Assembly: GCA_041674765.1 (NCBI GenBank)
Contig: JBAYVE010000003.1
Coordinates: forward strand, 2,040-66,039
DNA from: Patescibacteria group bacterium
GTDB taxonomy: Bacteria > Patescibacteriota > UBA1384 > XYA2-FULL-43-10 > 1-14-0-10-43-13
Length of the DNA stretch: 64,000 bases
Reading direction: 5' to 3'
Shown here: in pieces, positions 5,287-45,221 of the stretch
Numbering within the stretch: the first letter of the stretch is position 1
Layout of the letters: the number at the start of each line of letters is the position of its first letter
Notes under the pieces: generated by a model
What the model was told of the DNA's origin: nothing
Database searches by the model: none
What the model saw: only the letters and a program-made list of their open reading frames with translations
Position numbers and translations under genes: made by a program

Positions 5287-5290
5287 GGAA

Positions 5291-10735: not shown

Positions 10736-10750
10736 AGAAAGGAGCAGCCG

Positions 10751-10825
10751 ATGAAGTCCATCTTCAAAGCCAAAGTCAAATCTTTGGTCGAAAAACCGAT
10801 TGCCTATAACTGTCGCCGGGGCTGA
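10751..10825 (+). CDS. 24-aa candidate precursor peptide MKSIFKAKVKSLVEKPIAYNCRRG
   Basis: Not in the 60-aa ORF track. ATG is 7 nt after an AAAGGAG RBS. Lies between the arginase-fold gene stop and the first radical-SAM/SPASM gene, and is followed by a GNRA-tetraloop hairpin. Confidence 0.4.
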   Translation: MKSIFKAKVKSLVEKPIAYNCRRG

Positions 10826-10868
10826 ACCGCGGTGAACGACTCATGAGAGTCATGGACTAGGGGGTGGC

Positions 10869-10890
10869 GAAAGCCGCCCCCTTCTTGCTA
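10869..10890 (+). promoter_or_regulatory. stable stem-loop (9-bp stem, GAAA tetraloop) between the candidate precursor peptide and the rSAM gene; no U-tract
   Basis: GGGGGTGGC-GAAA-GCCGCCCCC: 8 Watson-Crick pairs plus one G-U. Followed by the RBS GAGAGGAG of the rSAM gene. Geometry typical of precursor/enzyme stoichiometry attenuators in RiPP operons. Confidence 0.45.
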
Positions 10891-10907
10891 CAAGAGAGGA
10901 GACTGCT

Positions 10908-21361: not shown

Positions 21362-21383
21362 TTATCCTAGCCTGCTAGGATAA
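21362..21383. repeat. perfect 10-bp inverted repeat TTATCCTAGC-CT-GCTAGGATAA overlapping the stop of the T4CP-like gene
   Basis: Read directly from the sequence. No U-tract on either strand, so unlikely to be a plain intrinsic terminator. Candidate protein-binding or oriT-like palindrome. Confidence 0.5.
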
Positions 21384-29043: not shown

Positions 29044-29046
29044 GCC

Positions 29047-30822
29047 ATGACTAACAACAAACAAAAACTTGAACTAACATGGATCGGTAAAAATAATCCT
29101 GAGTATGATATCTCCAATATTGAGCCAAGAATATTGGAAGAAAATTCTGAACTTTCCAATTGCACGAATGATCCAAATACCGAAAACATGCTTATCCATG
29201 GCGATAACCTTTTGGCTCTCAAGGCGCTTCTCCCTGAATACGAAGGCAAGGTGAAGTGTATATACATTGATCCACCATACAACACTGGCAATGCTTTTGA
29301 ACATTATGACGATAGTGTTGAGCATAGCACATGGCTGTCGCTAATGAAGCCAAGATTGGAGTTACTAAAAATGCTTTTAAGGGAAGATGGTATTTTGTGT
29401 GTTCAGATAAATGATGAAGAACAAGCGTATTTAAAAGTTTTGCTTGATGAGATTTTTGGACGATCAAATTTAATTAATCAAGTAAGTGTAAAAATGAAAC
29501 AAACCTCCGGGGCAAGCGGAGGAGGTGAAGATAAACGCCTCAAGAAAAATATTGAGTTCATTTTAAATTACGCCAAGAATTACCAGGTATTCCCTAAGTT
29601 TAATGAGGTACTTGAAGAGGAAAATCTTTTTGAATTGATAAATGAAATGAGAGAAGAAGGTAAGAGCTGGAAATATACCAGAGTTATTATGTCTAGGGGG
29701 GATCGTTCATTTTTCTGTGAAGTCAAAGATGGTTCAGGGATGCCCATTAAGATTTATAAACATACTGATGTAAAGATAAATACCATTCCTGAATTAATGA
29801 AAAATGATGGACTAACCGAAGAGGAAACATATTTTAAATACTTCGACAACATATTCAGGGATACCAATGCTCAAAGCTCAATTAGAGCAAGAGTGATGGA
29901 AGCTACAAAAGGTGAAGGAGATTTCTTTAGTATTGAATATGTTCCTCGTTCTGGTAAGTCAAAAGGTCAGATTACTACATCGTTCTACAAAGGTAATAAC
30001 AGGGATTTGATTGCTTGGTTAAAAGATGTAGCAGTAAAGAAAAAAAATTCAATTGTAAAACTGGAAAAACTTGGAACATATTGGGATGGATTTCCATTAA
30101 ACAATTTAACCAAGGAGGGAGGGGTGCTATTCCCTAACGGCAAAAAACCAGAAGCACTAATTCAAAGAATATTAGAATTAACAACTCAAAAGGACGACTT
30201 GGTTATAGACTCCTTTCTCGGTTCTGGTACGACTGTTGCAGTAGCGCATAAGATGGGGCGAAAATATATAGGAATTGAAATGGGCAATCATGCTTATACC
30301 CACTGCAAAGTTCGACTTGATAAAGTAGTTGACGGTTCAGATCAAGGTGGTGTAAGCAAGGTGGTAGATTGGCGTGGCGGCGGAGCTTACAAATTTTATG
30401 AATTAGCGCCAAGTTTTATTATGAAAGATGAATTCGGTAATCCAGTAATTGATATTTTTTATAATGATGCAAAACTTGTTAAGGCTATGTGCAAGCTTAT
30501 GAATTTTACATATCAACCAAGCTCAACTGAATATTGGAAACACGGAATAGGCCAAGGCAAAAATTACTTATATGTTACAACTCAGCTTTTAACTAGCGGA
30601 ATGATTCAACAAATTGCTGCCCACCTTGCTGAAGGAGAGTCACTTATTGTCTGTCCTAAAAAGTTTGAGCCGGGTGCAGATAAAATTGATGACCGAATCA
30701 CGATCAAGAAGATACCACAGTCTATACTGAAAGCTTGCCATTTTGGAAAAAAGGAATATCTATTACCTATTAAAGAATCTGCTATAGAAGAAAATGAGTC
30801 AGAAGAAGAGGAGGTTGAATAA
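29047..30822 (+). CDS. mod: Type III restriction-modification methyltransferase (Mod), N6-adenine/N4-cytosine beta-class
   Basis: Motif IV IYIDPPYNTGN precedes motif I DSFLGSGTT. Overlaps or abuts the Res gene. Confidence 0.85.
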   Translation: MTNNKQKLELTWIGKNNPEYDISNIEPRILEENSELSNCTNDPNTENMLIHGDNLLALKALLPEYEGKVKCIYIDPPYNTGNAFEHYDDSVEHSTWLSLMKPRLELLKMLLREDGILCVQINDEEQAYLKVLLDEIFGRSNLINQVSVKMKQTSGASGGGEDKRLKKNIEFILNYAKNYQVFPKFNEVLEEENLFELINEMREEGKSWKYTRVIMSRGDRSFFCEVKDGSGMPIKIYKHTDVKINTIPELMKNDGLTEEETYFKYFDNIFRDTNAQSSIRARVMEATKGEGDFFSIEYVPRSGKSKGQITTSFYKGNNRDLIAWLKDVAVKKKNSIVKLEKLGTYWDGFPLNNLTKEGGVLFPNGKKPEALIQRILELTTQKDDLVIDSFLGSGTTVAVAHKMGRKYIGIEMGNHAYTHCKVRLDKVVDGSDQGGVSKVVDWRGGGAYKFYELAPSFIMKDEFGNPVIDIFYNDAKLVKAMCKLMNFTYQPSSTEYWKHGIGQGKNYLYVTTQLLTSGMIQQIAAHLAEGESLIVCPKKFEPGADKIDDRITIKKIPQSILKACHFGKKEYLLPIKESAIEENESEEEEVE

Positions 30823-30823
30823 T

Positions 30824-33673
30824 ATGAAACCAGATCAAGCATTGAAATATCTGAATGGTGCAATGAGTCTGAGAGAGCCACAGACAAAAAGCCTAGAACT
30901 TTTCGCCCGTTACCTAGAGTCATCTGCCGGCCAGAAGCTACTCGCACGGATGAAGTATAAAAATAAGGATGATATTACTAACCTATTGTCCGAAAGCAAA
31001 GACTACTTCAGCGCTATTCCTGAAGCACGAGAATTTGATGAATTTGAACGTGCCTTTCCGGCATATACTTTTGCACTCGCAACAGGCGTAGGAAAGACGA
31101 GACTTATGGGAGCTTTCGTCGCTTATCTGTATCTGGTTTATAATATTCAGCATTTTCTTATTGTTGCTCCCAACCTCACAATTTACCGGAAGCTCTTTGA
31201 TGATTTTAGTAAATCTAATAATCCGAAATATGTCTTCAAGGGTATTCAAGAGATAAATACAAACACGGCTAAAGTCATCACTACAGATAACTATACTCAG
31301 CAACGAAACGCTTCACTTTTCGGCAATCAAATTGAAATCAATATTTTTAATGTCCAACAATTTGCTCAAAAAGATATGACAAATGAGCGCGGAATTACTA
31401 AAGCATGGGAGACTGCAGGAGAGTCATACTTTGACTATCTAAAAGAACACGATGATTTGGTAGTAATGCTCGATGAAGCTCATCACTATCATGCAGACGC
31501 AGCTTTGGGCGCATTAGATATACTCAATCCTCTTTTTGGGTTAGAGATGACCGCAACTCCATACTTGGGCACCCAAGGAAATGGCGGCGGAAATGCACGC
31601 CAAATTAGAATGAAAAATGTTTTGTATTCCTATAATCTTGGTGATGCTATTCGTGGCAAACTAGTAAAAGACCCATGGGTCGGCACCGAGGCCGATGTCG
31701 ATTTTAGTCAGTTTGCGGCCGATTCCATAGAGACAGATGCACGGAAACTTCAACTTGCTGCCTTTTTTCATGAACGAGCTAAAGTTGCCTTAAAAGAATA
31801 TGCACTGGAAAATAACATGCCAGTCGTGAAGCCAGTTATGCTCGTAGTAGCAAAAGATACAACTCATGCCGGTGAATTACGAGCCTTGATAGATAGCGAT
31901 GATTTTCGCAGAGGAGAATTCAAAGGTAAAGTAATTGAGATACACACAAAACTCCGAGGAGACGAGGCTGATGATAATATTGAAAAGTTAATCTCTCTAG
32001 AACATCCCGATAATCTAGTCGAGATCGTTATCCATGTAAACATGCTTAAAGAGGGCTGGGATGTGACAAATGTTTACACTATTGTGCCTTTGCGCGAAGC
32101 TGCTGCCATGATTCTTACGGAACAAACGATCGGCCGTGGTTTGCGATTACCATACGGGGAGCGCACAGGTGTTCCGTTAGTGGACAGATTAGTGCTTGTC
32201 GCTCACGAACAATTTTCAAAGGTTGTTGCACTTGCGAAGGATTCACCGCTTATTCAAGGACAAGTAGAGCAGATTACCGGACAAGAGGTTAAAGAGATAA
32301 AAATACTCACAGAGATTCAACCAGTTGTTCTCGACACTGTCAGGGGTGAAATAGAGCACAACGAGATAGTGATGCAAGCTGTCTCAGAAAAAGTAGATGA
32401 AATTGTTTCTAAGCTTCCACAGATTGAAAGTATGGATGAATCTGTGAAGTCTAAGTTTATCGAAAATAAAAAAGAAGAAATCATCAACGACCTAGCTAAG
32501 GAAACAATTAAGAGTAATACCTTCTCTAATTTCCATGGACAAGAATCAAAAGCGCCAACAGAGCTATCGTTTGGTCCCGATACACTTTTTGGCTCGTTTA
32601 GCGCTGAGGCAAAAGACGAACTTTCTAAAATTGCCCAAGAATCCGCTAAAGTAATAGAAAAAAGAAACATCCCTATTCCCCGATTAATGCTCACCCCGCA
32701 TTTTGGCGAGCTCTTTATCGCAGACTTTGATCTTGACACTAGTATAGGAATATTGCGTACATACACAAATGAGCGTGCGATCCTCGAGGAACAGCTGCAA
32801 AACAACCCAGATCAGAATCTTTTTGGCGAAGAAGTTCCTGGCCGCAGGGTCACTGAAGTGACTAGAGTGAGTAGTTTTGGTTCTCAAAGTCGGCAGACTC
32901 CTCAGAGTACTCTTATAGCTGCTCTACTTGATTTTCCATTAGTAGATTATGACGATGTAGATCAAAAGCCTCTACTCTTGAAATTAGCGGATCAGGCAGT
33001 TGCATATTATCGCAAAAAAGCGATTGATGATGATAATTTAGCCCTGATAGTTGAAAGTAACGCGCACTCAATTGCCGGTGATATCTATAAGCAGATTTTG
33101 GCACATAAAGAGTTGCGATCAGAAAGCTATATTGAATCAGAAGTACGAGAACCCAAACCATACTTGGAGCAATACAATATCTCATTATCTTTTGGAGAAA
33201 AATCAGTTTCCCTTGATTCTCAACTGAACACTTTTAGCGCAAAGTTAGCATATGGCAACTTCCAAAAGGCATGTCATGCGATGTACCGCTTTGATTCTTC
33301 TGATGAAGTTCGTTTAGCCTATCTTCTCGATAATGATCAATCCATAGAAGATTGGCTTCGTCCGGCTCCAAATCAGTTTGAGGGTCTGTATTGGCGTGAT
33401 TCAGAAGGTAGATCCGATCACCGCTATGAACCAGATTTTGTCGTTGAACTCGAGAAAGAAATAGTGATGATTGAGGTAAAGCCTGACGCTGAAATCAGCA
33501 CGCCCGATGTACAAGCAAAGAAACAGACTGCTGAAAAATACTGTGATGTAGTGAATAGAAATATTGGCAAGTTTGGAATCGTAAAATCATGGCGTTATAT
33601 AATTGCTCCGACCAGTAGAATAACAATCCACTCAACAATCGATGGACTACTAAAAGACCAAAGTTCAATTTAG
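30824..33673 (+). CDS. res: Type III restriction endonuclease Res subunit (SF2 helicase plus C-terminal PD-(D/E)xK nuclease)
   Basis: Walker A ATGVGKTRLM, DEAH VVMLDEAHHY, C-terminal EPDFVVELEKEIVMIEVKP. Start set at ATG 30824 (RBS GAGGAGG) rather than the track's 30794. Confidence 0.8.
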   Translation: MKPDQALKYLNGAMSLREPQTKSLELFARYLESSAGQKLLARMKYKNKDDITNLLSESKDYFSAIPEAREFDEFERAFPAYTFALATGVGKTRLMGAFVAYLYLVYNIQHFLIVAPNLTIYRKLFDDFSKSNNPKYVFKGIQEINTNTAKVITTDNYTQQRNASLFGNQIEINIFNVQQFAQKDMTNERGITKAWETAGESYFDYLKEHDDLVVMLDEAHHYHADAALGALDILNPLFGLEMTATPYLGTQGNGGGNARQIRMKNVLYSYNLGDAIRGKLVKDPWVGTEADVDFSQFAADSIETDARKLQLAAFFHERAKVALKEYALENNMPVVKPVMLVVAKDTTHAGELRALIDSDDFRRGEFKGKVIEIHTKLRGDEADDNIEKLISLEHPDNLVEIVIHVNMLKEGWDVTNVYTIVPLREAAAMILTEQTIGRGLRLPYGERTGVPLVDRLVLVAHEQFSKVVALAKDSPLIQGQVEQITGQEVKEIKILTEIQPVVLDTVRGEIEHNEIVMQAVSEKVDEIVSKLPQIESMDESVKSKFIENKKEEIINDLAKETIKSNTFSNFHGQESKAPTELSFGPDTLFGSFSAEAKDELSKIAQESAKVIEKRNIPIPRLMLTPHFGELFIADFDLDTSIGILRTYTNERAILEEQLQNNPDQNLFGEEVPGRRVTEVTRVSSFGSQSRQTPQSTLIAALLDFPLVDYDDVDQKPLLLKLADQAVAYYRKKAIDDDNLALIVESNAHSIAGDIYKQILAHKELRSESYIESEVREPKPYLEQYNISLSFGEKSVSLDSQLNTFSAKLAYGNFQKACHAMYRFDSSDEVRLAYLLDNDQSIEDWLRPAPNQFEGLYWRDSEGRSDHRYEPDFVVELEKEIVMIEVKPDAEISTPDVQAKKQTAEKYCDVVNRNIGKFGIVKSWRYIIAPTSRITIHSTIDGLLKDQSSI

Positions 33674-33683
33674 GAGTTTTTAT

Positions 33684-34001
33684 ATGAGTGAAACAGTAGT
33701 AGAAGGTGAATCCGATGATGAAGAGGAAGACGACTATTGGCCAAAAACTAAAGATGAGGCTATAGAATCATTCATGTGTTTAGATTTTACCGATAGAGAT
33801 TTTGAGATTATTGAGGAATGTGCCAAGAAAAATATTGATAAGATTCTGCCTGATTTTGAGGAATCAATAAGATTGGCCTGTGGGTTTGATTCTGGAAATA
33901 AAAAATTATTAGAAGTATGCGGTGATGCAAACATGGACCCACATGATGCTTCACGAGTTATAATGCTCGCAATTTGGGATTACTTTCATTTCACGCAATA
34001 A
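33684..34001 (+). CDS. small highly acidic protein (N-terminus ESDDEEEDDYW), unknown function
   Basis: 105 aa starting 11 nt after the res stop. Very Asp/Glu-rich. Confidence 0.4.
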   Translation: MSETVVEGESDDEEEDDYWPKTKDEAIESFMCLDFTDRDFEIIEECAKKNIDKILPDFEESIRLACGFDSGNKKLLEVCGDANMDPHDASRVIMLAIWDYFHFTQ

Positions 34002-34009
34002 GGATCAAA

Positions 34010-34249
34010 ATGACAGAAAATATGATGGAAAAGATCAATAAATCAAGGAATAAGAATTATAAATACAGAGTAGAAGAATGTGACTGCTATTCTTCTCATA
34101 TTGATCATGACGATATGGCACTTATCAATGATTTGGATATAGCAAAATTAATCGCCGACAAACTGCAACAGAGTGCAAAATCATATCAGGACTATACTGT
34201 TTTTGATGATGAAGGAAAAATGATTTACTCGGCAAAATATAAGAAATAG
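34010..34249 (+). CDS. hypothetical 79-aa protein
   Basis: ATG 34010 with an AAGGA RBS, straight after the previous stop. No recognisable motif. Confidence 0.35.
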   Translation: MTENMMEKINKSRNKNYKYRVEECDCYSSHIDHDDMALINDLDIAKLIADKLQQSAKSYQDYTVFDDEGKMIYSAKYKK

Positions 34250-34258
34250 AGAGGTTGA

Positions 34259-34579
34259 ATGGATAAAGAATTAGAGAAAAAACTTGATTCTATAACTGCT
34301 GAGTTATCTAGAGTTAACGGCGTTTTAGAAAGAATAAATGAGCAAGTATATGGAAAGTATTATTCTGAGACACCAGAAGGAAGCTTTGATGTGCTTTTGG
34401 ATGATGCCAAAAAGCTAGCAGAAGAGGCCGGTTATGTCTCTCCTGGACTATTCCAACGCAAATTTAGGATTGGGTATGCTCGTTCTGCTTCATTACTTGA
34501 TTTATTAATTGAGAAAAAAATTGTTGAGCCACGGGACGGCGCAAAACCATGTAAATATATTATGGGCCAGGAAGAATAA
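34259..34579 (+). CDS. coiled-coil plus FtsK-gamma-like winged-helix DNA-binding protein
   Basis: C-terminal SPGLFQRKFRIGYARSASLLDLLIEKKIVEPRDGAKPCKYI, compared with the FtsK gamma consensus LLQRRLRIGYNRAARLIEQME..GIVS...GSKPREVL. Confidence 0.5.
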   Translation: MDKELEKKLDSITAELSRVNGVLERINEQVYGKYYSETPEGSFDVLLDDAKKLAEEAGYVSPGLFQRKFRIGYARSASLLDLLIEKKIVEPRDGAKPCKYIMGQEE

Positions 34580-34581
34580 AT

Positions 34582-37500
34582 ATGGAAATGATACTTTCTA
34601 CAAAAATTAAACTTCCTGAAAACAATGTTGAAATTAAGAAGATTGGGAAGAATAAGATCTTTCAGATTGCTCAAAGGGAAGAAATTATTGATGTGAAAGT
34701 CTATCAGTTCAGGCAAAATGTTTACCTTCTTAGAGACAAGGTCGGAAGAGAATATTATCTCAGAAAATTTAATTCACGAGAATCTCTAGTTGGTAATAAC
34801 ATCCTAAGGCTAAAGGAATCTATAGATATTTTAAATTTAGATGTAGACAGCAAGCTTTTATGGCAAAAGCATTCACTGTTTACCGATATTAGAATACCTG
34901 AGGACATAATTAGTACTTGGAAAAATTCATTTTCATTTAGACTTGGTGATGATTTAAATCCTGGCTTACGCAAGCCTCAACTGGGGGCAATACATTCCAT
35001 AGCTTCACATTGGTCTGTTAATAAAGACTGTGGAACCATTGTTATGCCAACTGGCACAGGAAAAACGGAAACAATGCTTTCCAGTTTGGTTTATCAGCAA
35101 TGTCAGAAGATTTTAGTTTTGGTTCCAAGCAAAGCGCTAAGATCGCAAGTTTCTAAAAAGTTTCTTTCATTAGGCTGTTTACGTGAAATTGGAGTTCTAA
35201 ACTATCAGGCATTAAATCCAAGAGTCGCGGTGATTGAACATGGGGTAAAAGATATATTAGAAGCAATTGATCTGCTTAATAATGCAAACGTTATTGTCAC
35301 AACCACTGCAGCTCTGAATAAGTTTCCGGACGACATAAAACAAGAAATTGCAAAAGGATGCACTCATCTTTTTATTGATGAAGCCCACCATGTACCGGCA
35401 CAAACTTGGAGTGACATTAAAGGACTTTTTTCTGATAAAAAAATACTGCAATTTACTGCCACTCCGTTCCGAAGGGACGGAAAAGAAATTGACGGGAAAA
35501 TTATCTTTAATTATCCATTGGGAATGGCTCAGAAGGATGAATATTTTAAAAGTATCAACTTAATCGAAATTCAAGAATTTGATGATACAAAAGCAGACGA
35601 AAGGATAGCTGAATCGGCGATTGCTGTCTTGAAAAAAGACTTATCAAGGAGCAGAAAAAAAGATCATATATTAATGGCTCGGTGCAAGGATAAAACGAGA
35701 GCAAAAGAGATTGTTAAGATATATGAAAGATTAGCTACTGAATACAATCCAATTATTATAGATTCAAGCTTATCGGATAGACAATATAAGGATTCAATTG
35801 AAAAAATTGAACAAAGAAAATCTAGGATTATTGTTTGCGTAAACATGCTTGGGGAGGGGTATGATTTGCCAAATTTGAAAATTGCCGCAATCCATGACAC
35901 ACATAAAAGCTTGGCTATTACACTCCAGTTCATCGGACGTTTTACGCGTATATCTGGCAATAAAGTTGGCGATGCTACTGCAATAATCAATATTAGTGAT
36001 CCTCAAGTAAACAAAGAACTGGAAGAACTTTATGCTCAAGGTGCCGATTGGAACAGTCTACTGAGGCAAAAAAGTGAATCTGTAATACAAAAAGAAATAG
36101 ATTTTCAGGACTTTATTAATGGTTTCTCTGGAGAGCTTTCAAAACATCTCTCTCTTTGGAACCTAAGGCCTGCTTTCTCAACCCTTGTTTACGAGACAAA
36201 GTGTAAAAATTGGCATCCTAAAAAATTTATTGAGGCTATCCCCAAAAATTATCAGTACCTCCACGCGATTAATGAACGTGAAAAAATATTGGTCATATTG
36301 ATCAGCAAAGATGATGAAGTGACTTGGGGTAAGTACAAGAATATCAGAAACCACAATTTTGAGCTTTGTGTAGCTCATTGGGATGAAAAGCATAATGCAC
36401 TATTTCTTCAGTGCAGTGATTATGATGCACTCAATTGTACAAAGTTGTCAAAATTAATTTGTGGCGATCAAGCAAAATTAAAAAACGGCCAAAAAGTGTT
36501 TAATATATTTTCTGGAGTCGAGCGAGTTCTGGCTAGAAATCTAGGCGTTTCTACGATAGGAACGATCTCGTATACTATGCATTTCGGAAGTGATATAACA
36601 ACCGGACTTTCTAAGCTTGACAAGTCAGTTGGTGTCTTGAATAACATTTTTGGCTGGGGTTACGAGGAAGGCGTTAGAGTAGCTGAAGGATGCTCGGCAA
36701 AGCGTGGCAAAATATGGGCCATAGGTGGCGGCCCTATAACATCATGGAAAAAATGGTGCCTTAAAATCGCGGATAAAATATTCGATAATAAGATTAAAGA
36801 AAATAAAATAATTCAGGATTTTCTGAGACCGCAGGAATTGACAACAAGATATCGGTCAATCCCATTGTTGGCACAATGGAGTGAAAATATTTTAGTGACA
36901 CCAGAAGAAAATGTTTTTGTTTATTTTGGCAATAAGGAATACAAACTACATGATATTGACCTAGAGATTACCGATCATAGCCAGTCAGGCCCTATATTTT
37001 TTAAGATTATCTCTGAAACAGAGTCGTCGACTTATAAAATCTCTTTTTTCAGGACTAGGTGTAAATATTCACTTGTTGATGGTCAGGAGATCAGGTTAAG
37101 GAGAAATAATGGGGAGCCCATCTCTCTCGTCGATTATATGGAGCAAGATCCAATAACTGTAATTTATTCTGACGGCTCGTTCTCATATAATAATTTTCAT
37201 GTTCCCACACCTAAACTTAATACCTTTTTTAGTAAGGAAAAAATAATTTCTTTTGACTGGACTGGAACAAATATTAAAGCAGAGTCGATGGGTAAAGAGA
37301 ATAAAACTGAAAGTATACAGTACAAGATGTCCGAATATTTAAAGGACGATTATGAAATTATATTCAATGATGACTCTTCTGGCGAGGCAGGAGATTTAAT
37401 AGCAATAAGGCAGGAATCAGTAGATAGTTTTAAATTGCATCTTATCCATTGCAAATATTCATCTAACAAAAACCCAGGGGCACGAATTGATGATTTTTAT

Positions 37501-37815
37501 GCTCTCTGCGGGCAAGCACAAAAATGTATAAGATGGAAACATAATGGAATGGATTATCTTTCAAACCACATGAAAAAGAGAGATGAGACATGGCTCAATG
37601 AAGGAAAAACGAGATTCATCAAGGGAAATATAGCTGATTTAAATAAGCTAAAAAAGTTTTCCAGATTTGCAACAAATTTTATTTTTGAGGTATCTATTGT
37701 CCAGCCAGGGTTGTCGAAGGATAAGATAACTGACGATATTATGCAGCTTTTAGGTAGTACTGAAGACTATCTACTTAAAACTTCTGGGGCAAAATTTAAT
37801 GTTATCTGTTCATAA
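34582..37815 (+). CDS. 1077-aa SF2 (ResIII/DEAH-type) helicase with a roughly 550-aa C-terminal extension carrying a PD-(D/E)xK-like segment
   Basis: LRKPQLGAIHS (Q-motif-like), Walker A VMPTGTGKTETM, DEAH LFIDEAHHV, motif VI QFIGRFTRI. C-terminal GEAGDLIAIRQ...KLHLIHCKYS. Confidence 0.75.
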   Translation: MEMILSTKIKLPENNVEIKKIGKNKIFQIAQREEIIDVKVYQFRQNVYLLRDKVGREYYLRKFNSRESLVGNNILRLKESIDILNLDVDSKLLWQKHSLFTDIRIPEDIISTWKNSFSFRLGDDLNPGLRKPQLGAIHSIASHWSVNKDCGTIVMPTGTGKTETMLSSLVYQQCQKILVLVPSKALRSQVSKKFLSLGCLREIGVLNYQALNPRVAVIEHGVKDILEAIDLLNNANVIVTTTAALNKFPDDIKQEIAKGCTHLFIDEAHHVPAQTWSDIKGLFSDKKILQFTATPFRRDGKEIDGKIIFNYPLGMAQKDEYFKSINLIEIQEFDDTKADERIAESAIAVLKKDLSRSRKKDHILMARCKDKTRAKEIVKIYERLATEYNPIIIDSSLSDRQYKDSIEKIEQRKSRIIVCVNMLGEGYDLPNLKIAAIHDTHKSLAITLQFIGRFTRISGNKVGDATAIINISDPQVNKELEELYAQGADWNSLLRQKSESVIQKEIDFQDFINGFSGELSKHLSLWNLRPAFSTLVYETKCKNWHPKKFIEAIPKNYQYLHAINEREKILVILISKDDEVTWGKYKNIRNHNFELCVAHWDEKHNALFLQCSDYDALNCTKLSKLICGDQAKLKNGQKVFNIFSGVERVLARNLGVSTIGTISYTMHFGSDITTGLSKLDKSVGVLNNIFGWGYEEGVRVAEGCSAKRGKIWAIGGGPITSWKKWCLKIADKIFDNKIKENKIIQDFLRPQELTTRYRSIPLLAQWSENILVTPEENVFVYFGNKEYKLHDIDLEITDHSQSGPIFFKIISETESSTYKISFFRTRCKYSLVDGQEIRLRRNNGEPISLVDYMEQDPITVIYSDGSFSYNNFHVPTPKLNTFFSKEKIISFDWTGTNIKAESMGKENKTESIQYKMSEYLKDDYEIIFNDDSSGEAGDLIAIRQESVDSFKLHLIHCKYSSNKNPGARIDDFYALCGQAQKCIRWKHNGMDYLSNHMKKRDETWLNEGKTRFIKGNIADLNKLKKFSRFATNFIFEVSIVQPGLSKDKITDDIMQLLGSTEDYLLKTSGAKFNVICS

Positions 37816-37837
37816 TAATAATAAAACTACAATAACC

Positions 37838-38386
37838 ATGATTGATTTAAATAATACAAATTGGAAAAACATTGAAAGTGGATTGTCAAAGTATCTGCAT
37901 ATTATGCATTTGTTCATGGATACAAACGTTCAAACGAATAGCGAATTTCAGCGACTCTTTAATGGATTTTACAAAATCAGACAGCGACCAAAAGAATTTT
38001 ATCAAGCATTATATGACTATCTCGAGCAGAATAAAAACAAAAAAGCATCTTTCGCTCAGACATTATCGTTTTTTTACGAAAAATTAAACCGCTTTGAACC
38101 ATCTTTTTCAAGCAAAATTGTGGCAACAATAAATCCGGGATATCCTGTGTGGGATTCCGTGGTTCTTAAACGATTGAACTTGAAATCACCAGTATATAGC
38201 TCAAACAGGGATATCAGACTTAATAAAATGAATCAGATTTATGAGGATATTATTAATTGGTACTCTATTTTCTTAACAACAGAGGAGGCGGAAAAAATGC
38301 TAATAACTTTTGATGCGAAGATGGGGTCGGTAAATATCTCCGATATTAAGAAAATCGATCTGATACTTTGGCAGACTAGGAGTTAA
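37838..38386 (+). CDS. hypothetical 182-aa protein
   Basis: ATG 37838 lies 23 nt after the helicase stop. No motif recognised. Confidence 0.4.
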   Translation: MIDLNNTNWKNIESGLSKYLHIMHLFMDTNVQTNSEFQRLFNGFYKIRQRPKEFYQALYDYLEQNKNKKASFAQTLSFFYEKLNRFEPSFSSKIVATINPGYPVWDSVVLKRLNLKSPVYSSNRDIRLNKMNQIYEDIINWYSIFLTTEEAEKMLITFDAKMGSVNISDIKKIDLILWQTRS

Positions 38387-38391
38387 CAAAT

Positions 38392-39867
38392 ATGCAAATA
38401 TCAAAATCAGACTACATGCTTTTTCTTCGCCATCCGGCTTGGCTGTGGCTCAAGAAACATGACAAAGACAAATTACCGCCGGTTGATGATGATACTCAAG
38501 CGATTTTTGACGCTGGTTTTCTGTTTGAATCATATGCCGAGCAGTTATTTTCTGACACAATCAAACTGGGATTTGATGGTTATGGAGAATATTTATCCCT
38601 TACCCGAAGAACCAAAGAAGCGATTGATAGTGGGGCTAAAACAATTATACAGGCCAGATTCGAAGCTGGAGAGATTACCTGTATTTGTGATGTGCTAGTT
38701 AAAGTTGATTATAATACTTTCGATCTATATGAAATTAAATCAAGTACCAGTGCGAAACCTGAGCATCTTCCTGATTTAGCCTTTCAAAAAGAAGTCATCA
38801 CTCGAAGTGGTTACAAAGTGAATAGGATATTTGTTGTTCATGTTAATTATGAGTATGTGAAAGACGGAGAGATCAAAGCTTGTGATCTTTGCAAGAGCTG
38901 TGATGTTACAGATCAAGTGAACGAGCTTGAGGAGGCAACTCGTGAGAATATCAAAAAAGCGCTTGAGATTGTTAATCAACGAAAATGTCCCGATCTGTCA
39001 CCTAGTCACTGTAAACTTGGTGCTTTTGGCGATTGGCTTTCGATATACAAAACTCTGTCAGATATCGATGAGTATAGTATTTATCATCTGTGTTCGCCTG
39101 GAGCCCAACGAATAGGTGGTCTTGAAGAGTTAGGTATAAGACGTCTTCATGAGATCCCGGATGATTTTGCTTTAACCGAAAAACAACAGCGGCAAGTGCT
39201 GGCAACGAAGACCGACTGTGTGATTGCAGATAAAGCCAAAATCAAAGAATTCCTTACCGAACTACAGTTCCCTTTATATTTTCTCGATTATGAAACTCTT
39301 TCAAGTGTTGTGCCGTATTTTGATGGCTTGGGACCTTATAAGCAACTGCCCTTCCAATATTCTTTGCATGTTTTAGATTCCCCCGATGCCAAGATAAAAC
39401 ATTTCGAATATTTACATAGCGATAATTCGAATCCAGTCAAACCACTGACCGAAGCATTGAAATCACAAATCGGAACCGAAGGTACTGTGCTCGTCTGGTT
39501 TGAAGGCTTTGAAAAGACTTGCAACGAATTGATGGGCAAAATCATTCCGAAATACGCTGACTTTTATCAATCTATAAACGAACGAGTCGTTGATTTGATG
39601 AAACCATTCGCAGATGGCCATTATGTCCATAAAGACTTCTTTGGTAGCGCTTCAATCAAAAAAGTTTTGCCAGTGCTAATCCCTGAGTTATCATACAAAG
39701 AACTAGATATTCACGCTGGTGGTGCAGCTCAAAGACTCTGGACGGAAGCTGTCCTTGACGGAAAAAGAGCTGACGAAAAAGACAAAATTTTGAGTGACTT
39801 ACTTAAGTATTGCGAGCTTGATACTCTGGCCATGGTTAGGATTTATCAATTTCTAGCCGATTTATAA
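38392..39867 (+). CDS. DUF2779-like protein: Cas4/RecB-like PD-(D/E)xK nuclease N-domain plus DEDD-like exonuclease C-domain
   Basis: N-terminus ISKSDYMLFLRHPAWLWLKKH matches the recalled DUF2779 start (LSKS.F..G.QC.K.LWL). Cys clusters CDLCKSC and CPDLSPSHC. Mid-protein YFLDYETLS resembles an Exo-I DxE motif. Confidence 0.55.
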   Translation: MQISKSDYMLFLRHPAWLWLKKHDKDKLPPVDDDTQAIFDAGFLFESYAEQLFSDTIKLGFDGYGEYLSLTRRTKEAIDSGAKTIIQARFEAGEITCICDVLVKVDYNTFDLYEIKSSTSAKPEHLPDLAFQKEVITRSGYKVNRIFVVHVNYEYVKDGEIKACDLCKSCDVTDQVNELEEATRENIKKALEIVNQRKCPDLSPSHCKLGAFGDWLSIYKTLSDIDEYSIYHLCSPGAQRIGGLEELGIRRLHEIPDDFALTEKQQRQVLATKTDCVIADKAKIKEFLTELQFPLYFLDYETLSSVVPYFDGLGPYKQLPFQYSLHVLDSPDAKIKHFEYLHSDNSNPVKPLTEALKSQIGTEGTVLVWFEGFEKTCNELMGKIIPKYADFYQSINERVVDLMKPFADGHYVHKDFFGSASIKKVLPVLIPELSYKELDIHAGGAAQRLWTEAVLDGKRADEKDKILSDLLKYCELDTLAMVRIYQFLADL

Positions 39868-39891
39868 ATTGAAGAAAAGGGAGAAATATAA

Positions 39892-40440
39892 TTGAACAAA
39901 AAACATCACAATGAGAACACAAACTATTTCCTTCGTACTCTGGGTTGTATTGGTAATAGTAATATATTAAGTAATCATATTAAAATAATATATGACCGGC
40001 TATCGCATAAAGGCAGTAATTTTACTGCTGAAAATGATACTGATTATTATAGCTGGTTGACTTTAAACGTTATTTCCATTTCACAGGAACTTGAACACAA
40101 ATATTATAGACACAACCCTAATCATTCGCCAGAAAACAACCAGCTACTGTATAAAAATATTATTGATTATTTTAAGATTCACCTTGATTTAGAAAACAAG
40201 AACAAATTGCATTACGTTTATAGCACTATGGAATTAAGACATCGGATAATACATCTTGGTGTCCCAAATTTGATAATAAATGTTAAGAATAAAAAGTTTA
40301 TTCAAAATGTGCTTGATGGTGATTATAAGCTTGCCGAAAAGTACTTTCAGAAAGCCATGACATTGTTATGGATAATTCCCGATCCAATTGCCGAACTCCC
40401 TGGAATATGCCAGATTGGTACTTACTTAGAAAATAACTGA
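39892..40440 (+). CDS. hypothetical 182-aa protein
   Basis: ORF in an operon-like array. No motif recognised. Confidence 0.4.
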   Translation: MNKKHHNENTNYFLRTLGCIGNSNILSNHIKIIYDRLSHKGSNFTAENDTDYYSWLTLNVISISQELEHKYYRHNPNHSPENNQLLYKNIIDYFKIHLDLENKNKLHYVYSTMELRHRIIHLGVPNLIINVKNKKFIQNVLDGDYKLAEKYFQKAMTLLWIIPDPIAELPGICQIGTYLENN

Positions 40441-40447
40441 TAACTGT

Positions 40448-41752
40448 ATGCAACTTAATTCTGATCAAAAAGGTAAAATTGGAGAGAAATTTATACATGA
40501 TATGGCATATCAGTCATTTTTAAAGTACTGGTGTTATCCCAATCCAAAAGACGAGAAAGGTGATAAAAAAGAAATTTGTGATCTACTAATACTCTTTAAA
40601 GATACTCTGATTATCATTTGTGTTAAAAATCTAGAATTTAAAGGGAATTACGATAGATATTTTCGAAAATCAATTGAGAAGGATATTAAGCAGGTTTATG
40701 GCGCAGAGCGCAAGCTAACAAACAAAGAAATCGAGACGTTTATTAAACACCCTGATCGAGAGATCGAAAAAATTAACAAAAAAAGCATAAACAAAATAAT
40801 ACGCTTAGTTGTTCATCTTGGAGATGACATTCAGTTTTACCCAATATTTGATTTATCAAAAAATCAAGAATTCGTTAACATTTTTGATAAAGATACTTTT
40901 TTCACACTTGTCTCAGAGCTTGATACAATACCAGACTTTATTGACTATCTTGAAAAGAGAGAACAAATATTTCAAAAAACTGACGCAATAATTTTACCGA
41001 AAGAAGAGTATGACTTCGACGAAGAAACAGCATTGCAATTTTTTGATTATGACTCACAAAAACCATCCCCTGCCGATAAGAAACACATTTTGATTTCTGG
41101 TTCTGAATGTGATTTATTGGCATATTATTTAATGAATAATCGTCAATTTATTGAGCATTTGTCATCAAAAGAACTTAATAGTCTCTCTTTGCAAATTGAT
41201 GGCAAATGGAAAGAGTTTATTAAAAATAAGCAACTTCTTGCCAAGAAAAATTTAGACAAGGTTAGTTATTTTATAGATGAATTTGTTAGAAAAGAGATAC
41301 TTGCTTGCCAAAATCCTAAATCAGTCAGAATGGCCCAGGAATTACTGTCTTTTAATAGGTTTGAGCGCCGAATTATTTCCAAATCGTTTTTTGAGTTTTA
41401 TGATCGATATAAAGATAGTCATGGATATAAAATTGGCAGAAGATTCGGTGAAGTTAATGGAGTTGGAATTGTTTTTATATTCTATTCTTCGGACATGAAA
41501 GAAGAGCATGTTAATCAATCATTATCTTTAGCAATGGATAGTTTTTGCATATATAATGGATATAAAAATAATAAAATGATCCTGATAGCAACAACTAATA
41601 ATCTTAGCCAATTTAAATATGGTTTAGTCGAGAATATAGTTCCATTTGATAGAGTTACGGAAAAAGCGATAATGGAAGATGCGAAACAACTTGGCTGGTT
41701 TACACAATTACAATATATTAATTGGCATGAAAAGGAATATCCGGATTGTTAG
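40448..41752 (+). CDS. NERD-like (nuclease-related domain) protein, 434 aa
   Basis: N-terminus GKIGEKFIHD...EICDLLILFKDTLIIICVKN fits the NERD pattern (GxxGE ... EIDxLlI...gIfVIEVKN). Confidence 0.45.
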   Translation: MQLNSDQKGKIGEKFIHDMAYQSFLKYWCYPNPKDEKGDKKEICDLLILFKDTLIIICVKNLEFKGNYDRYFRKSIEKDIKQVYGAERKLTNKEIETFIKHPDREIEKINKKSINKIIRLVVHLGDDIQFYPIFDLSKNQEFVNIFDKDTFFTLVSELDTIPDFIDYLEKREQIFQKTDAIILPKEEYDFDEETALQFFDYDSQKPSPADKKHILISGSECDLLAYYLMNNRQFIEHLSSKELNSLSLQIDGKWKEFIKNKQLLAKKNLDKVSYFIDEFVRKEILACQNPKSVRMAQELLSFNRFERRIISKSFFEFYDRYKDSHGYKIGRRFGEVNGVGIVFIFYSSDMKEEHVNQSLSLAMDSFCIYNGYKNNKMILIATTNNLSQFKYGLVENIVPFDRVTEKAIMEDAKQLGWFTQLQYINWHEKEYPDC

Positions 41753-41783
41753 GTAATTAGTAATAAATGAGATTATCAAGAAA

Positions 41784-42251
41784 ATGAAAGTTCAAGAATT
41801 TGATAAAAATGACAAAGTATCAACTTTCTTCATCGATCGCTGGGGATGCGATTTTATAGTTTCAGGTGAAGAGAAATTATATGGCAAAGATTTGCCTGGT
41901 TTTGCAGTGTACGGAGACAATAAAATTATTGGCTTGTTGACCTATCATCTTAAAAACAATGAGTGCGAGATTGTAACGCTTGATTCGATTGAACTAAATA
42001 GTGGAATCGGATCTGCTCTGCTCAATGCTATGGTTAAAAAAGCAATTGATAATAAATACTCAAGACTCTGGTTAATGACTACTAATGATAATATTGATGC
42101 AATGCGTTTTTATCAGAAACGAGGTTTTGTTTTTAGTGGGATTAACATAGATGCAATTCAAAAAAGCCGTGACCTGGGGCAAGAAATACCAGAGACGGGT
42201 CATTATAATATACCTATTAGAGACGAGATTGAGCTTGAATATCAATTATAG
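41784..42251 (+). CDS. GNAT acetyltransferase
   Basis: LDSIELNSGIGSALLNAMVK and RFYQKRGF motifs. Confidence 0.65.
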   Translation: MKVQEFDKNDKVSTFFIDRWGCDFIVSGEEKLYGKDLPGFAVYGDNKIIGLLTYHLKNNECEIVTLDSIELNSGIGSALLNAMVKKAIDNKYSRLWLMTTNDNIDAMRFYQKRGFVFSGINIDAIQKSRDLGQEIPETGHYNIPIRDEIELEYQL

Positions 42252-42259
42252 TAAAAAAT

Positions 42260-42748
42260 ATGATTTACCATCCAGAATTATTTTATCTTCAAGACACAAA
42301 AAACTTTCCGCTTAAGAAAGCACTTTTAGCGACTGCGAAAGCAGTTTCGACCTTTTCTTATGATTATTATTCTGAGCTCATTACTCCTAAAAAAGGAATC
42401 AAGGATAAAATTCGGCAAGGCACATTACCTCAAGATAAAGCAGCAAGAGAAAAATTGATTGAAGAAATATTTGATTGGATCACGGACAATTCGGAATGCT
42501 GGGATTTATTTGCTTTATTTTTATATGGAAACCCTCGGAATACTAAGCGGGATGAGTGCGATAAATTTGACCATCATGATGATACTTGTTGCTGGGTATT
42601 AAACCTATCAGAAGAAGAGTTTTTAAAAGTTCAAAAAGTCTGGCAAGGAAATGGTCTGCCATCTGATTTATTTTATAATCGAGATCTAGGTGTTCAAAAG
42701 GGTTGGCGATATTATTCGCCGAAACGATGGGAAGCTCGTAATAAATAA
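42260..42748 (+). CDS. hypothetical 162-aa protein
   Basis: ORF between two GNAT genes. No motif recognised. Confidence 0.4.
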   Translation: MIYHPELFYLQDTKNFPLKKALLATAKAVSTFSYDYYSELITPKKGIKDKIRQGTLPQDKAAREKLIEEIFDWITDNSECWDLFALFLYGNPRNTKRDECDKFDHHDDTCCWVLNLSEEEFLKVQKVWQGNGLPSDLFYNRDLGVQKGWRYYSPKRWEARNK

Positions 42749-42780
42749 ACGCTTATTAACTTATTACAAAAGAGATACGT

Positions 42781-43317
42781 ATGAAAGAATTAAACCTAAG
42801 GGCTCTTAATAAAAACGATGAGGTTGCTCACACATTATTCATTAGTGAAATGATGGAAGCCGACGGTAGAATTGTGCCAACAGCTATGGAAATTATGGAG
42901 AGTGATCAATTATTTGAAAATTGGTTAGAACGTAAGAGCAACGAATCAAAAGGTATCGGTCTACCAGAAGGAAAAGTGCCTGCAACGCTATTGTGCTTGT
43001 TTGGAGAAGGTGAAAGTAAAATACTTGGTGCGGTACATATTAGACATGAATTAAATGAGCATTTATTGCTTCATGGTGGAAATATTGGTTATGGAGTCAC
43101 ACCATCTGAACGCAAAAAGGGTTATGCAAATGCAATGCTTTCAATGGCTTTAGATTTTTGTAAGAATTTAGGACTGGATAAAACTTTAGTTACTTGTGAT
43201 AAGGACAACATTGGCTCTGCTAAAACTATTCAGAAAAATGGTGGCGTGCTATGGGATGAATTTGTCAGCGAGCGAGATGGAAAATTAACTCAAAGATATT
43301 GGATTAGCCTTAAGTAA
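42781..43317 (+). CDS. GNAT acetyltransferase
   Basis: HGGNIGYGVTPSERKKGYANAML and QKNGGV motifs. Confidence 0.65.
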   Translation: MKELNLRALNKNDEVAHTLFISEMMEADGRIVPTAMEIMESDQLFENWLERKSNESKGIGLPEGKVPATLLCLFGEGESKILGAVHIRHELNEHLLLHGGNIGYGVTPSERKKGYANAMLSMALDFCKNLGLDKTLVTCDKDNIGSAKTIQKNGGVLWDEFVSERDGKLTQRYWISLK

Positions 43318-43829: not shown

Positions 43830-44237
43830 TTACTTTAAGTATTTTTGAATAATACTGTTTGTTTGGTTTGCGATTCTTTTCTTGGCAACTGGGATGAGTT
43901 CTGAAACAGAAGATCTAGTCTTTTCGAAGGCCTCTTCTAAAGTAATTCCGTTATTATAATGCTCTTTTTCATATACTTGCACCTCCTTTGCCATTTCTTC
44001 GGTAACCGATTCTGGGTTCTTTAATCCTCTTTCAACTTTGATCCACCAGGCCAATTCGTTTCTTAGTTTGGTAAATTCGATCGCATCTTCTCTCTCCATC
44101 AAAAAACCAAACCGGTTCTTTACTTTTTGAATCGATTTCCCAATCTCTTTGTCGTTTGGCTCTTGGACTTCTGGTCCCAATTTAGCATTATCTTTATTCA
44201 TAGCATTTCCTTCTTTTTTAATTGAATAACAAACCAA
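43830..44237 (-). CDS. hypothetical protein co-operonic with the PLD-like gene
   Basis: Overlaps the PLD-like gene by 20 nt on the same strand. The true start may be MNKDNAK at 44201. Confidence 0.4.
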   Translation of the reverse strand: MVCYSIKKEGNAMNKDNAKLGPEVQEPNDKEIGKSIQKVKNRFGFLMEREDAIEFTKLRNELAWWIKVERGLKNPESVTEEMAKEVQVYEKEHYNNGITLEEAFEKTRSSVSELIPVAKKRIANQTNSIIQKYLK

Positions 44238-44943
44238 TCAGTGACGCAATCGTCACAGTACTTTTCAATAATAGCACTAAAAAATGAATTGCAAAAATTA
44301 TCACAATTACAACAGCTGGGGAAGCAGCGCAAATAATTATAAGCAATGCCTTTTTTCTGTTTTTCTCTCGTATGCTTATGACGAGTCCTTGGTACATTTT
44401 TTCATACAATTTCTTGTACTCGGCAACCAACATCTTGTTGAGGCCTAAAAACTCAAGCATTTTTAAGCTCGTTGTTTCATCATCTATTCTTCTCATTATC
44501 TCTCTACTTTGTCTTTGTGAAAGGATGTTTAGACTGCCTTCCCACAATATTTTACGATCAATCACAGCCATTTTTTGATGGATAAAGCCTGGCAGATAAA
44601 TAATCGTTGCTCCGTATTCCTCGTACTCTCTCAAGGCGCAGGATATTTCACTTTTTGCAAAGTATTCGTGCTCTTCTAGTGGTCTCGTAAAGATGAATAT
44701 TGGTATATTTCTTTGCCGAAGCTTGATAAATGTATCTTTGAAGAAACTGGATCGAAATTTGGATATAAATGGGCAATGAATAACAACTTCCTTTTGCGCT
44801 GATAATAAATCTTTGACAAACGCTTTGTAAAAAGTCTTTTCGTTAAACAGCTCAAGCTTGCTGATCCTTTCATAGGTCTCAAGATCGACTTCCTGCTGTT
44901 TTTTTGCTAGATACCTTTGATAAGATGGCGTTAAAACTGGCAT
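44218..44943 (-). CDS. PLD-family (HKD-motif) nuclease/phosphodiesterase-like protein with a C-terminal TM anchor
   Basis: HQKMAVID...EGSLNILSQ single HxKxxxxD...GSxN motif. C-terminal ALLIIICAASPAVVIVIIFAIHFLVLLL. Confidence 0.6.
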   Translation of the reverse strand: MPVLTPSYQRYLAKKQQEVDLETYERISKLELFNEKTFYKAFVKDLLSAQKEVVIHCPFISKFRSSFFKDTFIKLRQRNIPIFIFTRPLEEHEYFAKSEISCALREYEEYGATIIYLPGFIHQKMAVIDRKILWEGSLNILSQRQSREIMRRIDDETTSLKMLEFLGLNKMLVAEYKKLYEKMYQGLVISIREKNRKKALLIIICAASPAVVIVIIFAIHFLVLLLKSTVTIASLIGLLFN

Positions 44944-44987
44944 TTCTTCCTCCTTTATTATTTTATTAAGCTGGAAATTTTCGTTAA

Positions 44988-45007
44988 TTGTGATATATTT
45001 GTGATAT
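44988..45007. promoter_or_regulatory. direct repeat TTGTGATAT x2 at 11-bp spacing overlapping the XRE start codon (candidate operator or -10 elements)
   Basis: TTGTGATATATTTGTGATATG read directly. Lies in the divergent intergenic region between the PLD-like and XRE genes. Confidence 0.3.
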
Positions 45008-45221
45008 GAACAAGAAACAAAGCGAAGATATATTCAAAGATTTGGGTGTGAAGCTCAGGGGTTTTCGCGAGAAAACTGGAATGACCCAAGCGGAAGTGGC
45101 TGAACAGGCCGGAATTCATGTAAATTATTATGCTCGGATTGAGAGAGGCGAAGAGAATCCTACATATGAAGTGCTTCTCAAAATCAAGAGCGCACTAAAA
45201 ATAAAGTCAGATCTCGTCTAA
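45006..45221 (+). CDS. XRE-family HTH transcriptional regulator
   Basis: MTQAEVAEQAGIHVNYYARIERGEENPTYEVLLKI. Confidence 0.8.
   Translation: MNKKQSEDIFKDLGVKLRGFREKTGMTQAEVAEQAGIHVNYYARIERGEENPTYEVLLKIKSALKIKSDLV

Follow-up and report, generated by a model that had tools for sequence, protein, structure and literature searches.

This analysis concerns a block of eight open reading frames (ORFs), ORF1 to ORF8, at positions 33684–41752 on the + strand of a 64,000-nucleotide (nt) stretch of DNA from a Patescibacteria group bacterium (assembly GCA_041674765.1, contig JBAYVE010000003.1, positions 2,040 to 66,039). That whole stretch is called the window below. A reading made earlier from the letters alone, here the sequence-only reading, had taken the block for one undescribed defence or DNA-processing system. 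We find instead that the eight ORFs are probably at least four separately inherited pieces and not one machine, and that the island they lie in is a defence island whose cargo slot can be swapped. The pieces are ORF1, which belongs to the island backbone; ORF2 to ORF5, the cargo; ORF6; and ORF7 with ORF8, an exchanged block. Within the cargo, ORF4 encodes a helicase-nuclease that is a plausible undescribed single-gene defence candidate. The observations are of domain content, conserved catalytic residues, solo inheritance and mosaic structure, and they are taken up in turn.

The layout described by the sequence-only reading was confirmed. Eight + strand ORFs form a tight array directly past a res gene, with gaps of −17 to +24 nt; ORF1 starts 10 nt past the res stop codon (res end 33673), and the motifs quoted earlier are all present in the translations. 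The same packing, however, runs across 24319–43317, where 15 + strand ORFs are separated by gaps of at most 32 nt each, reaching the restriction-modification (RM) genes upstream and GNAT genes downstream. It follows that the limits of an eight-gene “operon” are arbitrary. Patescibacteria genomes are very compact, and since the packing continues on both sides, it reflects a compact genome and not a functional unit. Tight same-strand packing in a Candidate Phyla Radiation (CPR) genome is thus no evidence of joint function, and it is comparison with sister islands that resolves the modules.

That the eight ORFs make up one undescribed multi-gene system whose components act together is scarcely credible. 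It can draw on the tight packing, with gene ends overlapping or nearly abutting and no + strand terminator-like site between the eight genes in a consensus scan, and on the facts that every recognisable domain acts on DNA and that no named system matches. Yet no co-conservation is seen in 83 helicase loci, 80 ORF8 loci or about 27 DUF2779 loci. The sister island L172 swaps ORF2–ORF5 for another defence gene and keeps the rest, the flanks having 88–99% DNA identity. There are, moreover, at least four levels of divergence inside the block, and the packing extends beyond both its ends. The eight-gene proposal fails because the genes are not co-conserved elsewhere, which had been set beforehand as its refutation. 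A role in anti-phage defence or DNA processing, claimed for the block as a whole, remains plausible for individual genes and is not borne out for the unit.

The amino-acid identities between the window and L172 are 98% for the SNF2 protein, 94% for Res, 93% for ORF1, 84% for the DUF2779 protein (ORF6), 97% for ORF7 and 99% for ORF8. Window positions 34001–38395 (+ strand), by contrast, have no counterpart in L172 except for a 236-nt, 71%-identical piece of the FtsK-gamma gene, ORF3. This interval, delimited by the blastn breakpoints and by the gene content of L172, is the swappable cargo segment and holds ORF2–ORF5. In its slot L172 has a 137-amino-acid (aa) FtsK-gamma gene overlapping the start of a gene for a 1004-aa protein with PHP and ABC-type ATPase domains (PADLOC Ppl, 5e-27). 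In the second sister island, L167, the order is ORF1 (78%), a Dsr1-like gene (1.4e-24) and DUF2779 (81%), followed downstream by a PLD/HTH (helix-turn-helix) gene pair. Ppl and Dsr1 are single-gene defence systems. They stand in the same slot as the ORF4 segment, ahead of DUF2779 and past ORF1 (with the FtsK-gamma gene), and the domains of Ppl (PHP and ABC-type ATPase) and Dsr1 (a SIR2-family C-terminal region) are unrelated to those of ORF4, so that the likeness is one of position and not of homology. The slot is therefore swappable, and the ORF4 segment is positionally equivalent to the Ppl-like and Dsr1-like genes. Around the swapped segment, only short repeats at chance level and no tRNA integration sites were found.

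Sliding-window nucleotide identity to L172 is 88–92% over SNF2 and Res, 73–86% over ORF1, nil over the cargo, 70–85% over DUF2779 and 98–99.5% over ORF7–ORF8. These steps, with at least four divergence levels across the block, identify it as a recombination mosaic. The high-identity block at 39795–41479 (+ strand), which contains the 98–99.5% stretch of ORF7–ORF8, has a history different from that of the adjacent DUF2779 gene and was recently exchanged.

ORF4 (34582–37815, + strand) encodes a solo helicase-nuclease of 1077 aa. As the sequence-only reading had it, the protein combines a superfamily 2 (SF2) DEAH helicase with a PD-(D/E)xK-like tail. The helicase core lies at about aa 125–505 (Pfam ResIII, DEAD and Helicase_C), and its nearest solved structures are XPB, RadD and SauUSI. 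It is followed by a beta-rich middle region with TATA-binding protein-like elements, at about aa 505–905, and by a PD-(D/E)xK-fold nuclease at about aa 912–1077 (nt about 37315–37815). A model of the tail, covering the 578 residues past the helicase core and built on an alignment of 14 family members, has a nuclease fold, with a mean predicted local distance difference test score (pLDDT) of 85.4 and a predicted template modelling score of 0.79; for the middle region of ~400 aa, no significant solved counterpart was found. Across 23 homologs of 41–71% identity, the invariant residues are K161 and D266-E267-A268-H269 in the helicase and D930, D931, E935, D938, H956, K958, Q978 and Q980 in the nuclease part.

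ORF4 is inherited alone. Its homologs number in the thousands; of the 120 best, at 41–71% identity, most are full length (about 1,070–1,130 aa). The hosts include Patescibacteria, Bacteroidota, Proteobacteria, Firmicutes, Planctomycetes and others. The 580-aa tail forms 648 clusters (50% identity, E<=1e-30) and nearly always occupies residues about 500–1090 of proteins of 1,000–1,120 aa. When one genome was scanned for each species, more than 567 genomes had a relative, and 80 loci were fetched with 10-kb flanks; the helicase-side comparison, of 83 non-redundant loci, used tblastn, all-against-all neighbour clustering and phmmer on six-frame ORFs. The three methods agree that the helicase is the sole family common to the 83 loci, none of which has a homolog of ORF1, 2, 3, 5, 7 or 8 within 10 kb of the helicase. 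The only neighbour in a fixed position is hsdRMS, directly upstream in four gammaproteobacterial loci. A same-strand ORF within 150 nt upstream is present in only 22 of 80 loci, and these ORFs are mutually unrelated; a conserved small upstream partner for ORF4 was accordingly rejected, the upstream ORFs being unrelated and mostly absent. Among 102 immediate neighbours, the PADLOC matches are dominated by redundant Type I S-subunit models. The closest homologs (67–70%) are flanked by AlwI RM genes, by a PycTM gene with recombinases, or by a Tle1-like lipase gene.

Homologs also occur on 70 plasmids. These include an E. coli IncF plasmid, Klebsiella plasmids in which the gene has only IS5 copies on either side, an Acinetobacter plasmid with gamma-mobile-trio recombinases beside it, and Vibrio p337, where it lies past a Type I RM operon; others are Agrobacterium plasmids. 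The gene is also found next to integrases. In several Gammaproteobacteria (L004–L006, L010, L012, L015 and L203), the homolog begins 6–14 nt past a Type I hsdS gene, with two more genes in between on Vibrio p337. In Pectobacterium, an AAA_15/AAA_21 ATPase gene lies downstream of the homolog.

The best partial matches of the ORF4 core are RadD, XPB, UvrB, RecG and PriA, and one could read the gene as a housekeeping DNA-repair helicase-nuclease of the RadD/XPB type with no part in immunity. We regard this as very unlikely. The matches fall far under the family cut-offs (for RadD, 46.7 bits against 720), and the family is patchily distributed, its 50%-identity clusters numbering only 648 worldwide. 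The gene is carried on plasmids, between insertion sequence (IS) elements, in a gamma-mobile-trio element, by integrases and past RM operons, and in the sister islands its slot is filled by the Ppl-like and Dsr1-like genes.

The domain calls used Pfam, PADLOC 2.0 (2023 release), NCBIfam, PHROGs and PDB sequences. No PADLOC 2.0 model matches any of the eight proteins over its full length, in line with the sequence-only reading, which could not match the gene combination to any architecture it knew. Specifically, none of the eight gives a full-length PADLOC 2.0 match to component proteins of named multi-gene systems (Gabija, DISARM, Druantia, Zorya, Nhi, Shedu, Pbe, Dpd and others). Such matches to multi-gene systems as occur in the block are confined to the ORF4 helicase core: PbeA at 60 bits, with DinG, GajB and Cas3 all under 27 bits.

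A close parallel in organization is Hna, a single-protein helicase-nuclease abortive-infection system of Sinorhizobium meliloti, 845 aa long and with a DinG/XPD-like core (PMC13381803). Like ORF4, Hna has a C-terminal PD-(D/E)xK nuclease on the same polypeptide. Unlike ORF4, it has no long middle region, while ORF4 joins an XPB/RadD/ResIII-like core to roughly 400 aa of extra sequence. A search of the PDB with the ORF4-family profile returned no Hna chain at E<=1. Assignment to Hna was rejected since ORF4 belongs to another helicase clade, with no DinG/XPD-like core by similarity to Hna. The different clade, the extra middle region and the absence of a sequence match together place ORF4 outside the Hna, Nhi and restriction-motor families. 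From Type III Res and the Type ISP enzymes (LlaBIII) it differs in having no partner or fused methyltransferase at most loci. Nor does it match PADLOC REase_III at E<=0.1, whereas the true upstream Res scores 409 bits; that ORF4 might provide the upstream Mod with another Res subunit was rejected as well, because its homologs mostly have no adjacent methyltransferase. Hachiman consists of two genes, for the HamA (DUF1837) nuclease and the HamB helicase, whereas ORF4 has no DUF1837 gene nearby and matches HamB at only 18.5 bits, over residues 150–196. No match to DUF4263 or to a Shedu (SduA) model was found in the block. In the literature on single-gene helicase-nuclease systems, Hna, Snf2-nuclease, YprA and Shedu are described, and no description of the ORF4 family was found; a literature search under the accession of the E. 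coli homolog likewise returned nothing.

We propose that ORF4 would be the active gene of the cargo, working as a self-sufficient, single-polypeptide enzyme. The XPB/RadD/ResIII-type SF2 ATPase core would load on foreign DNA and translocate along it, and the C-terminal PD-(D/E)xK domain would then cleave that DNA. The ~400-aa middle region may serve as a sensor or DNA clamp that restricts the action to foreign DNA or to DNA structures specific to infection. By analogy, such a logic would resemble that of Hna, Nhi, Type ISP and Type III Res enzymes. Since there is no methyltransferase, two kinds of trigger would be realistic: the enzyme may prefer modified DNA, as Type IV systems do, or it may sense products of phage replication in the manner of Hna.

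ORF6 (38392–39867, + strand) is a DUF2779 protein with a Cas4/RecB-like PD-(D/E)xK N-terminal half and a DEDDy 3′–5′ exonuclease C-terminal half. The Pfam assignment is clear (PF11074, 134.4 bits against a cut-off of 23.3), and there are weak matches to RNase_H_2 (Pfam), Cas4 (PADLOC) and TM0106 RecB-like (NCBIfam). In 20 sequences, D100, E114 and K116 of the first half and D299, E301, D401, Y473 and D477 of the second are invariant; judged by these residues, both predicted active sites are intact. Published HHpred analyses of the DUF2779 family agree on the two nuclease halves (PMC13621843, PMC3985635). PDB sequence searches with the family gave nothing useful. Thus, of the earlier description of ORF6, the DUF2779 assignment (134 bits) and the Cas4-like and DEDD residues, which are invariant, stand; the Cas4-type cysteine cluster does not, as it is not conserved in the family alignment. 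Identification of ORF6 as Cas4 proper was rejected, given that the four-cysteine Fe-S cluster is not conserved and that no cas genes are present in the DUF2779 loci examined.

DUF2779 genes (in the window and in L167–L175 and L182–L200) are nearly always found by restriction or defence genes. In other Patescibacteria, ORF6 homologs 72–85% identical have varied surroundings, with known or candidate defence genes upstream on the same strand in 6/6 loci: a Dsr1-like protein in L167, an OLD/AriA-like ATPase in L168, PDC-S11 with a PD-Lambda-3_B-like HEPN protein in L170, the Ppl-like PHP-ATPase in L172, PDC-S06 with an AbiV-type HEPN protein in L173, and a PDC-S41/Nhi-like protein in L175. In IMG/VR, homologs have GmrSD, SNF2-Mod-Res and Type I RM genes next to them; when 67 near neighbours from 19 loci were counted, ResIII (5) and GmrSD_N (3) were the most frequent families, then SWI2_SNF2, N6_N4_Mtase and HSDR_N. 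One 55-kb IMG/VR contig has two DUF2779 copies 17 kb apart (L189 and L193). A DUF2779 protein, MMSYN1_0389, is quasi-essential in the minimal cell JCVI-syn3.0 (PMC13621843). With this lineage of Cas4-related nucleases, ORF6 shares the two-domain architecture and the catalytic residues of both halves; in contrast, MMSYN1_0389 is quasi-essential and treated on its own, whereas ORF6 and about 25 other loci lie in restriction or defence neighbourhoods. A family that is quasi-essential in a minimal cell yet recurs by restriction and defence genes is of interest in itself.

There is a small but real chance that DUF2779 is tied functionally to GmrSD, the DrmD-like SNF2 protein and Type III Mod-Res (it might, for instance, break down or recycle DNA that has been restricted), in which case the cargo would have been inserted between Res and DUF2779. 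SNF2-Mod-Res accompanies DUF2779 in both the window and L172, and also in the distant L189, where DUF2779-SNF2(69%)-Mod-Res lie on one strand. Mod-Res-like genes stand two genes upstream of DUF2779 in L182, GmrSD-DUF2779 overlap by 4 nt in L187, and L193 has DUF2779-GmrSD; ResIII and GmrSD_N, moreover, head the IMG/VR neighbour counts given above. Most DUF2779 loci examined, however, have no RM trio, the sample is small and drawn partly from related lineages, and the quasi-essentiality in JCVI-syn3.0 points to a housekeeping role in DNA processing (PMC13621843).

ORF3 (34259–34579, + strand) is coiled-coil at its N-terminus and then forms an FtsK-gamma winged helix at residues 44–98 (PF09397, 52.5 bits against a cut-off of 30.6, E 4e-14), the C-terminal domain the sequence-only reading had recognised. 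Its relative is the 137-aa FtsK-gamma protein ahead of the Ppl-like gene in L172, at 66% identity, found only there among 179 fetched loci; there is no homolog at any other helicase locus and no relative in viral contigs. Because an FtsK-gamma gene precedes two unrelated effectors, ORF3 probably regulates the cargo slot locally, or serves it as an adaptor, and its product would act by binding DNA.

One may go further and suppose a three-part cassette, in which an FtsK-gamma DNA-binder, an exchangeable large effector and a shared downstream DUF2779 nuclease belong together. The window and L172 both have the order FtsK-gamma, large effector, DUF2779, and the genes at the two ends of this series (FtsK-gamma, 66%; DUF2779, 84% at the amino-acid and 70–85% at the nucleotide level) are more diverged than the outer flanks. 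DUF2779 lies downstream of defence genes in the six other Patescibacteria loci listed above, and it adjoins helicase homologs in L063 and L049. We nevertheless consider the cassette unlikely: FtsK-gamma is missing at the remaining five DUF2779 loci and at every further helicase locus, 81 of the 83 helicase loci have no DUF2779, Ppl and Dsr1 are single-gene systems, and DUF2779 is also found upstream of or beside GmrSD and SNF2-Mod-Res in other orders.

ORF8 (40448–41752, + strand; 434 aa) has an N-terminal NERD-like PD-(D/E)xK-fold domain. Its family, of about 433 aa, is about 50% identical in Bacteroidota and is also present in other phyla. The earlier label NERD-like held in part. The profile match is sub-threshold (PF08378, 13.1 bits against 22.1), with residues 8–93 aligned to profile positions 1–94 of 111. 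Weak NERD matches recur in 11/23 family members over the same N-terminal 90 residues (best E 0.015), and UniRef gives one homolog the name NERD domain-containing protein. The predicted fold is that of PD-(D/E)xK restriction endonucleases (model pLDDT 84.7). ORF8 differs from NERD in that the ExK glutamate is Ser or Cys in its family (“IISVKN”) and that a C-terminal part of roughly 300 aa is unmatched. PDB sequence searches with the family gave nothing useful. The ORF8-side comparison covered 80 metagenome loci, 53 of them with at least 4 genes. In none (0/80) was there a homolog of ORF1–3 or ORF5–7, and a helicase homolog is found in one: on metagenome contig L137, the helicase homolog (1991–4948, 36%) and the ORF8 homolog (10001–11236, 40%) are 5 kb apart. 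The largest neighbour cluster is present in five loci, at differing positions, and there is no conserved partner. In one of two genome contexts an ORF8 homolog neighbours a TIR protein; in the other it is flanked by AbiEi/AbiEii on one side and SMODS + S_4TM genes on the other. ORF8 is thus inherited alone, in defence contexts, and ORF6 and ORF8 are independent nuclease genes recurring in defence neighbourhoods.

ORF7 (39892–40440, + strand; 182 aa), the other member of the exchanged block, is lineage-restricted. Its only homolog among the 179 loci is in L172 (97% amino-acid identity), and it has no match in Pfam, PADLOC, NCBIfam, PHROGs or PDB sequences.

New here are an uncharacterised helicase-nuclease family that lies outside every defence library used and the association of DUF2779 with defence neighbourhoods. 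It is tempting to go beyond the single locus. The ORF4 family (~1,090 aa, with a FokI/HamA-like nuclease) might be an undescribed and widespread single-gene anti-phage or anti-plasmid system, ranging from Patescibacteria to E. coli plasmids, and Patescibacteria might use a slot, ORF1(+/−FtsK-gamma)-DUF2779, for exchanging such systems, DUF2779 being itself a defence-associated nuclease. We offer this broader proposal as a possibility with somewhat less than an even chance of being right. The cargo slot is a possible source of further single-gene systems.

Several points weigh against this picture of separate, individually active pieces. Where (D/E)xK has its canonical acidic residue, ORF4 has His (H956-C-K958) and ORF8 has Ser or Cys, so that the catalytic competence of the two proteins is not guaranteed. 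Anti-phage activity of ORF4, ORF6 and ORF8 is inferred from gene context, and the ORF4 family may have been named since the 2023 PADLOC release. The greater divergence of the FtsK-gamma and DUF2779 genes, relative to the outer flanks of the window and L172, means that the two could travel with the cargo. In 2/83 distant loci DUF2779 adjoins a helicase homolog, which is above random placement: in L063 the two share a strand and lie 12 nt apart, and in L049 they are convergent. Lastly, all eight genes may be co-transcribed and may cooperate in this genome. Functional cooperation here is possible because there is no internal + strand terminator-like site and no excess of promoters over shuffled sequence; promoter-like sites in the block are in fact fewer than in shuffles, a consensus-scan result that is uninformative on operon structure.

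The two remaining cargo ORFs are orphans. ORF2 (+ strand) extends over 34010–34249 from an ATG (79 aa), or from a TTG at 33974 (91 aa). ORF5 (37799–38386, + strand) encodes 195 aa (182 aa from the second Met), and its first 17 nt overlap the end of the helicase gene. Neither belongs to a family in Pfam, PADLOC, NCBIfam or PHROGs or has a PDB sequence match, and neither has homologs in any of the 179 loci (0/179), both being absent from L172.

ORF1 (33684–34001, + strand; 105 aa) is, as described before, strongly acidic, with an isoelectric point (pI) of 4.1 and 29 D+E against 10 K+R; the charge is reminiscent of DNA-mimic proteins. It has no family match in Pfam, PADLOC, NCBIfam, PHROGs or PDB sequences. 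Its homologs in L172 (93%) and L167 (78%) are in the same relative place, and there are no others among the 179 loci. Between the window and L172, its codons show 30 synonymous and 6 non-synonymous differences, which indicates a real gene under purifying selection. ORF1 belongs to the island backbone with GmrSD, SNF2 and Mod-Res, and not to the cargo. Its position is constant in the three islands (the window; L172, 6202–6510; L167, 1552–1848): past a res or T5orf172 gene and ahead of the variable slot.

The defence-island setting proposed earlier was borne out by the genes upstream, all on the + strand: a GmrSD_N protein (24319–26103, Pfam), a DrmD-like SNF2 ATPase (26104–29043, Pfam; PADLOC DrmD, 685 bits), a Type III Mod (29047–30822, Pfam N6_N4 methyltransferase; PADLOC MTase_III, 452 bits) and a Type III Res (30794–33673, Pfam ResIII; PADLOC REase_III, 409 bits). 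The DrmD-like SNF2 protein is partnered here with GmrSD_N and Type III Mod/Res, and not with drmA/B/C. The SNF2-Mod-Res trio, of which L172 has a copy at 1–6180, recurs in the IMG/VR contig L189 (9535–16763) at identities of 69%, 39–52% and 37%, and it may be a distinct SNF2-assisted variant of Type III. The centre of mod (about 29380–30145) cannot be aligned with that of L172, whereas both ends can (71–79% amino-acid identity), an arrangement that fits a swap of the target-recognition domain and hence a change of specificity.

On the far side, a minus-strand PLD-family gene with weak MkoC/DrmC-like matches, a small partner and a divergent HTH gene lie at 43830–45221. The three are kept in L167 (9854–11540) at 58%, 31% and 47% identity, with a large serine recombinase next to them there. 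This PLD/HTH group marks the far side of the island backbone. The region as a whole is part of a chromosomal defence island of about 24.3–46.5 kb in a Patescibacteria metagenome-assembled genome; that the island is chromosomal follows from the type IV secretion system (T4SS)-like genes upstream together with the aminoacyl-tRNA synthetase genes downstream. A megablast search of the whole block against plasmids gave no match. The density of defence systems in CPR bacteria has been reported to be high (PMC12259885).

The T4SS-like genes, at 1134–2924, 4003–5286 and 21375–24044, encode a TraG/VirB4-type ATPase, a T4SS pilin and a TrwB/TraD-type coupling protein. The GC content is 0.31–0.40 over about 16–46 kb, against 0.43–0.46 at 8–16 kb, and the drop fits acquired DNA. 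Beyond the island, the leucyl-tRNA synthetase gene (46810–49827) has a NUDIX domain inserted at residues 433–542, directly past the editing domain.

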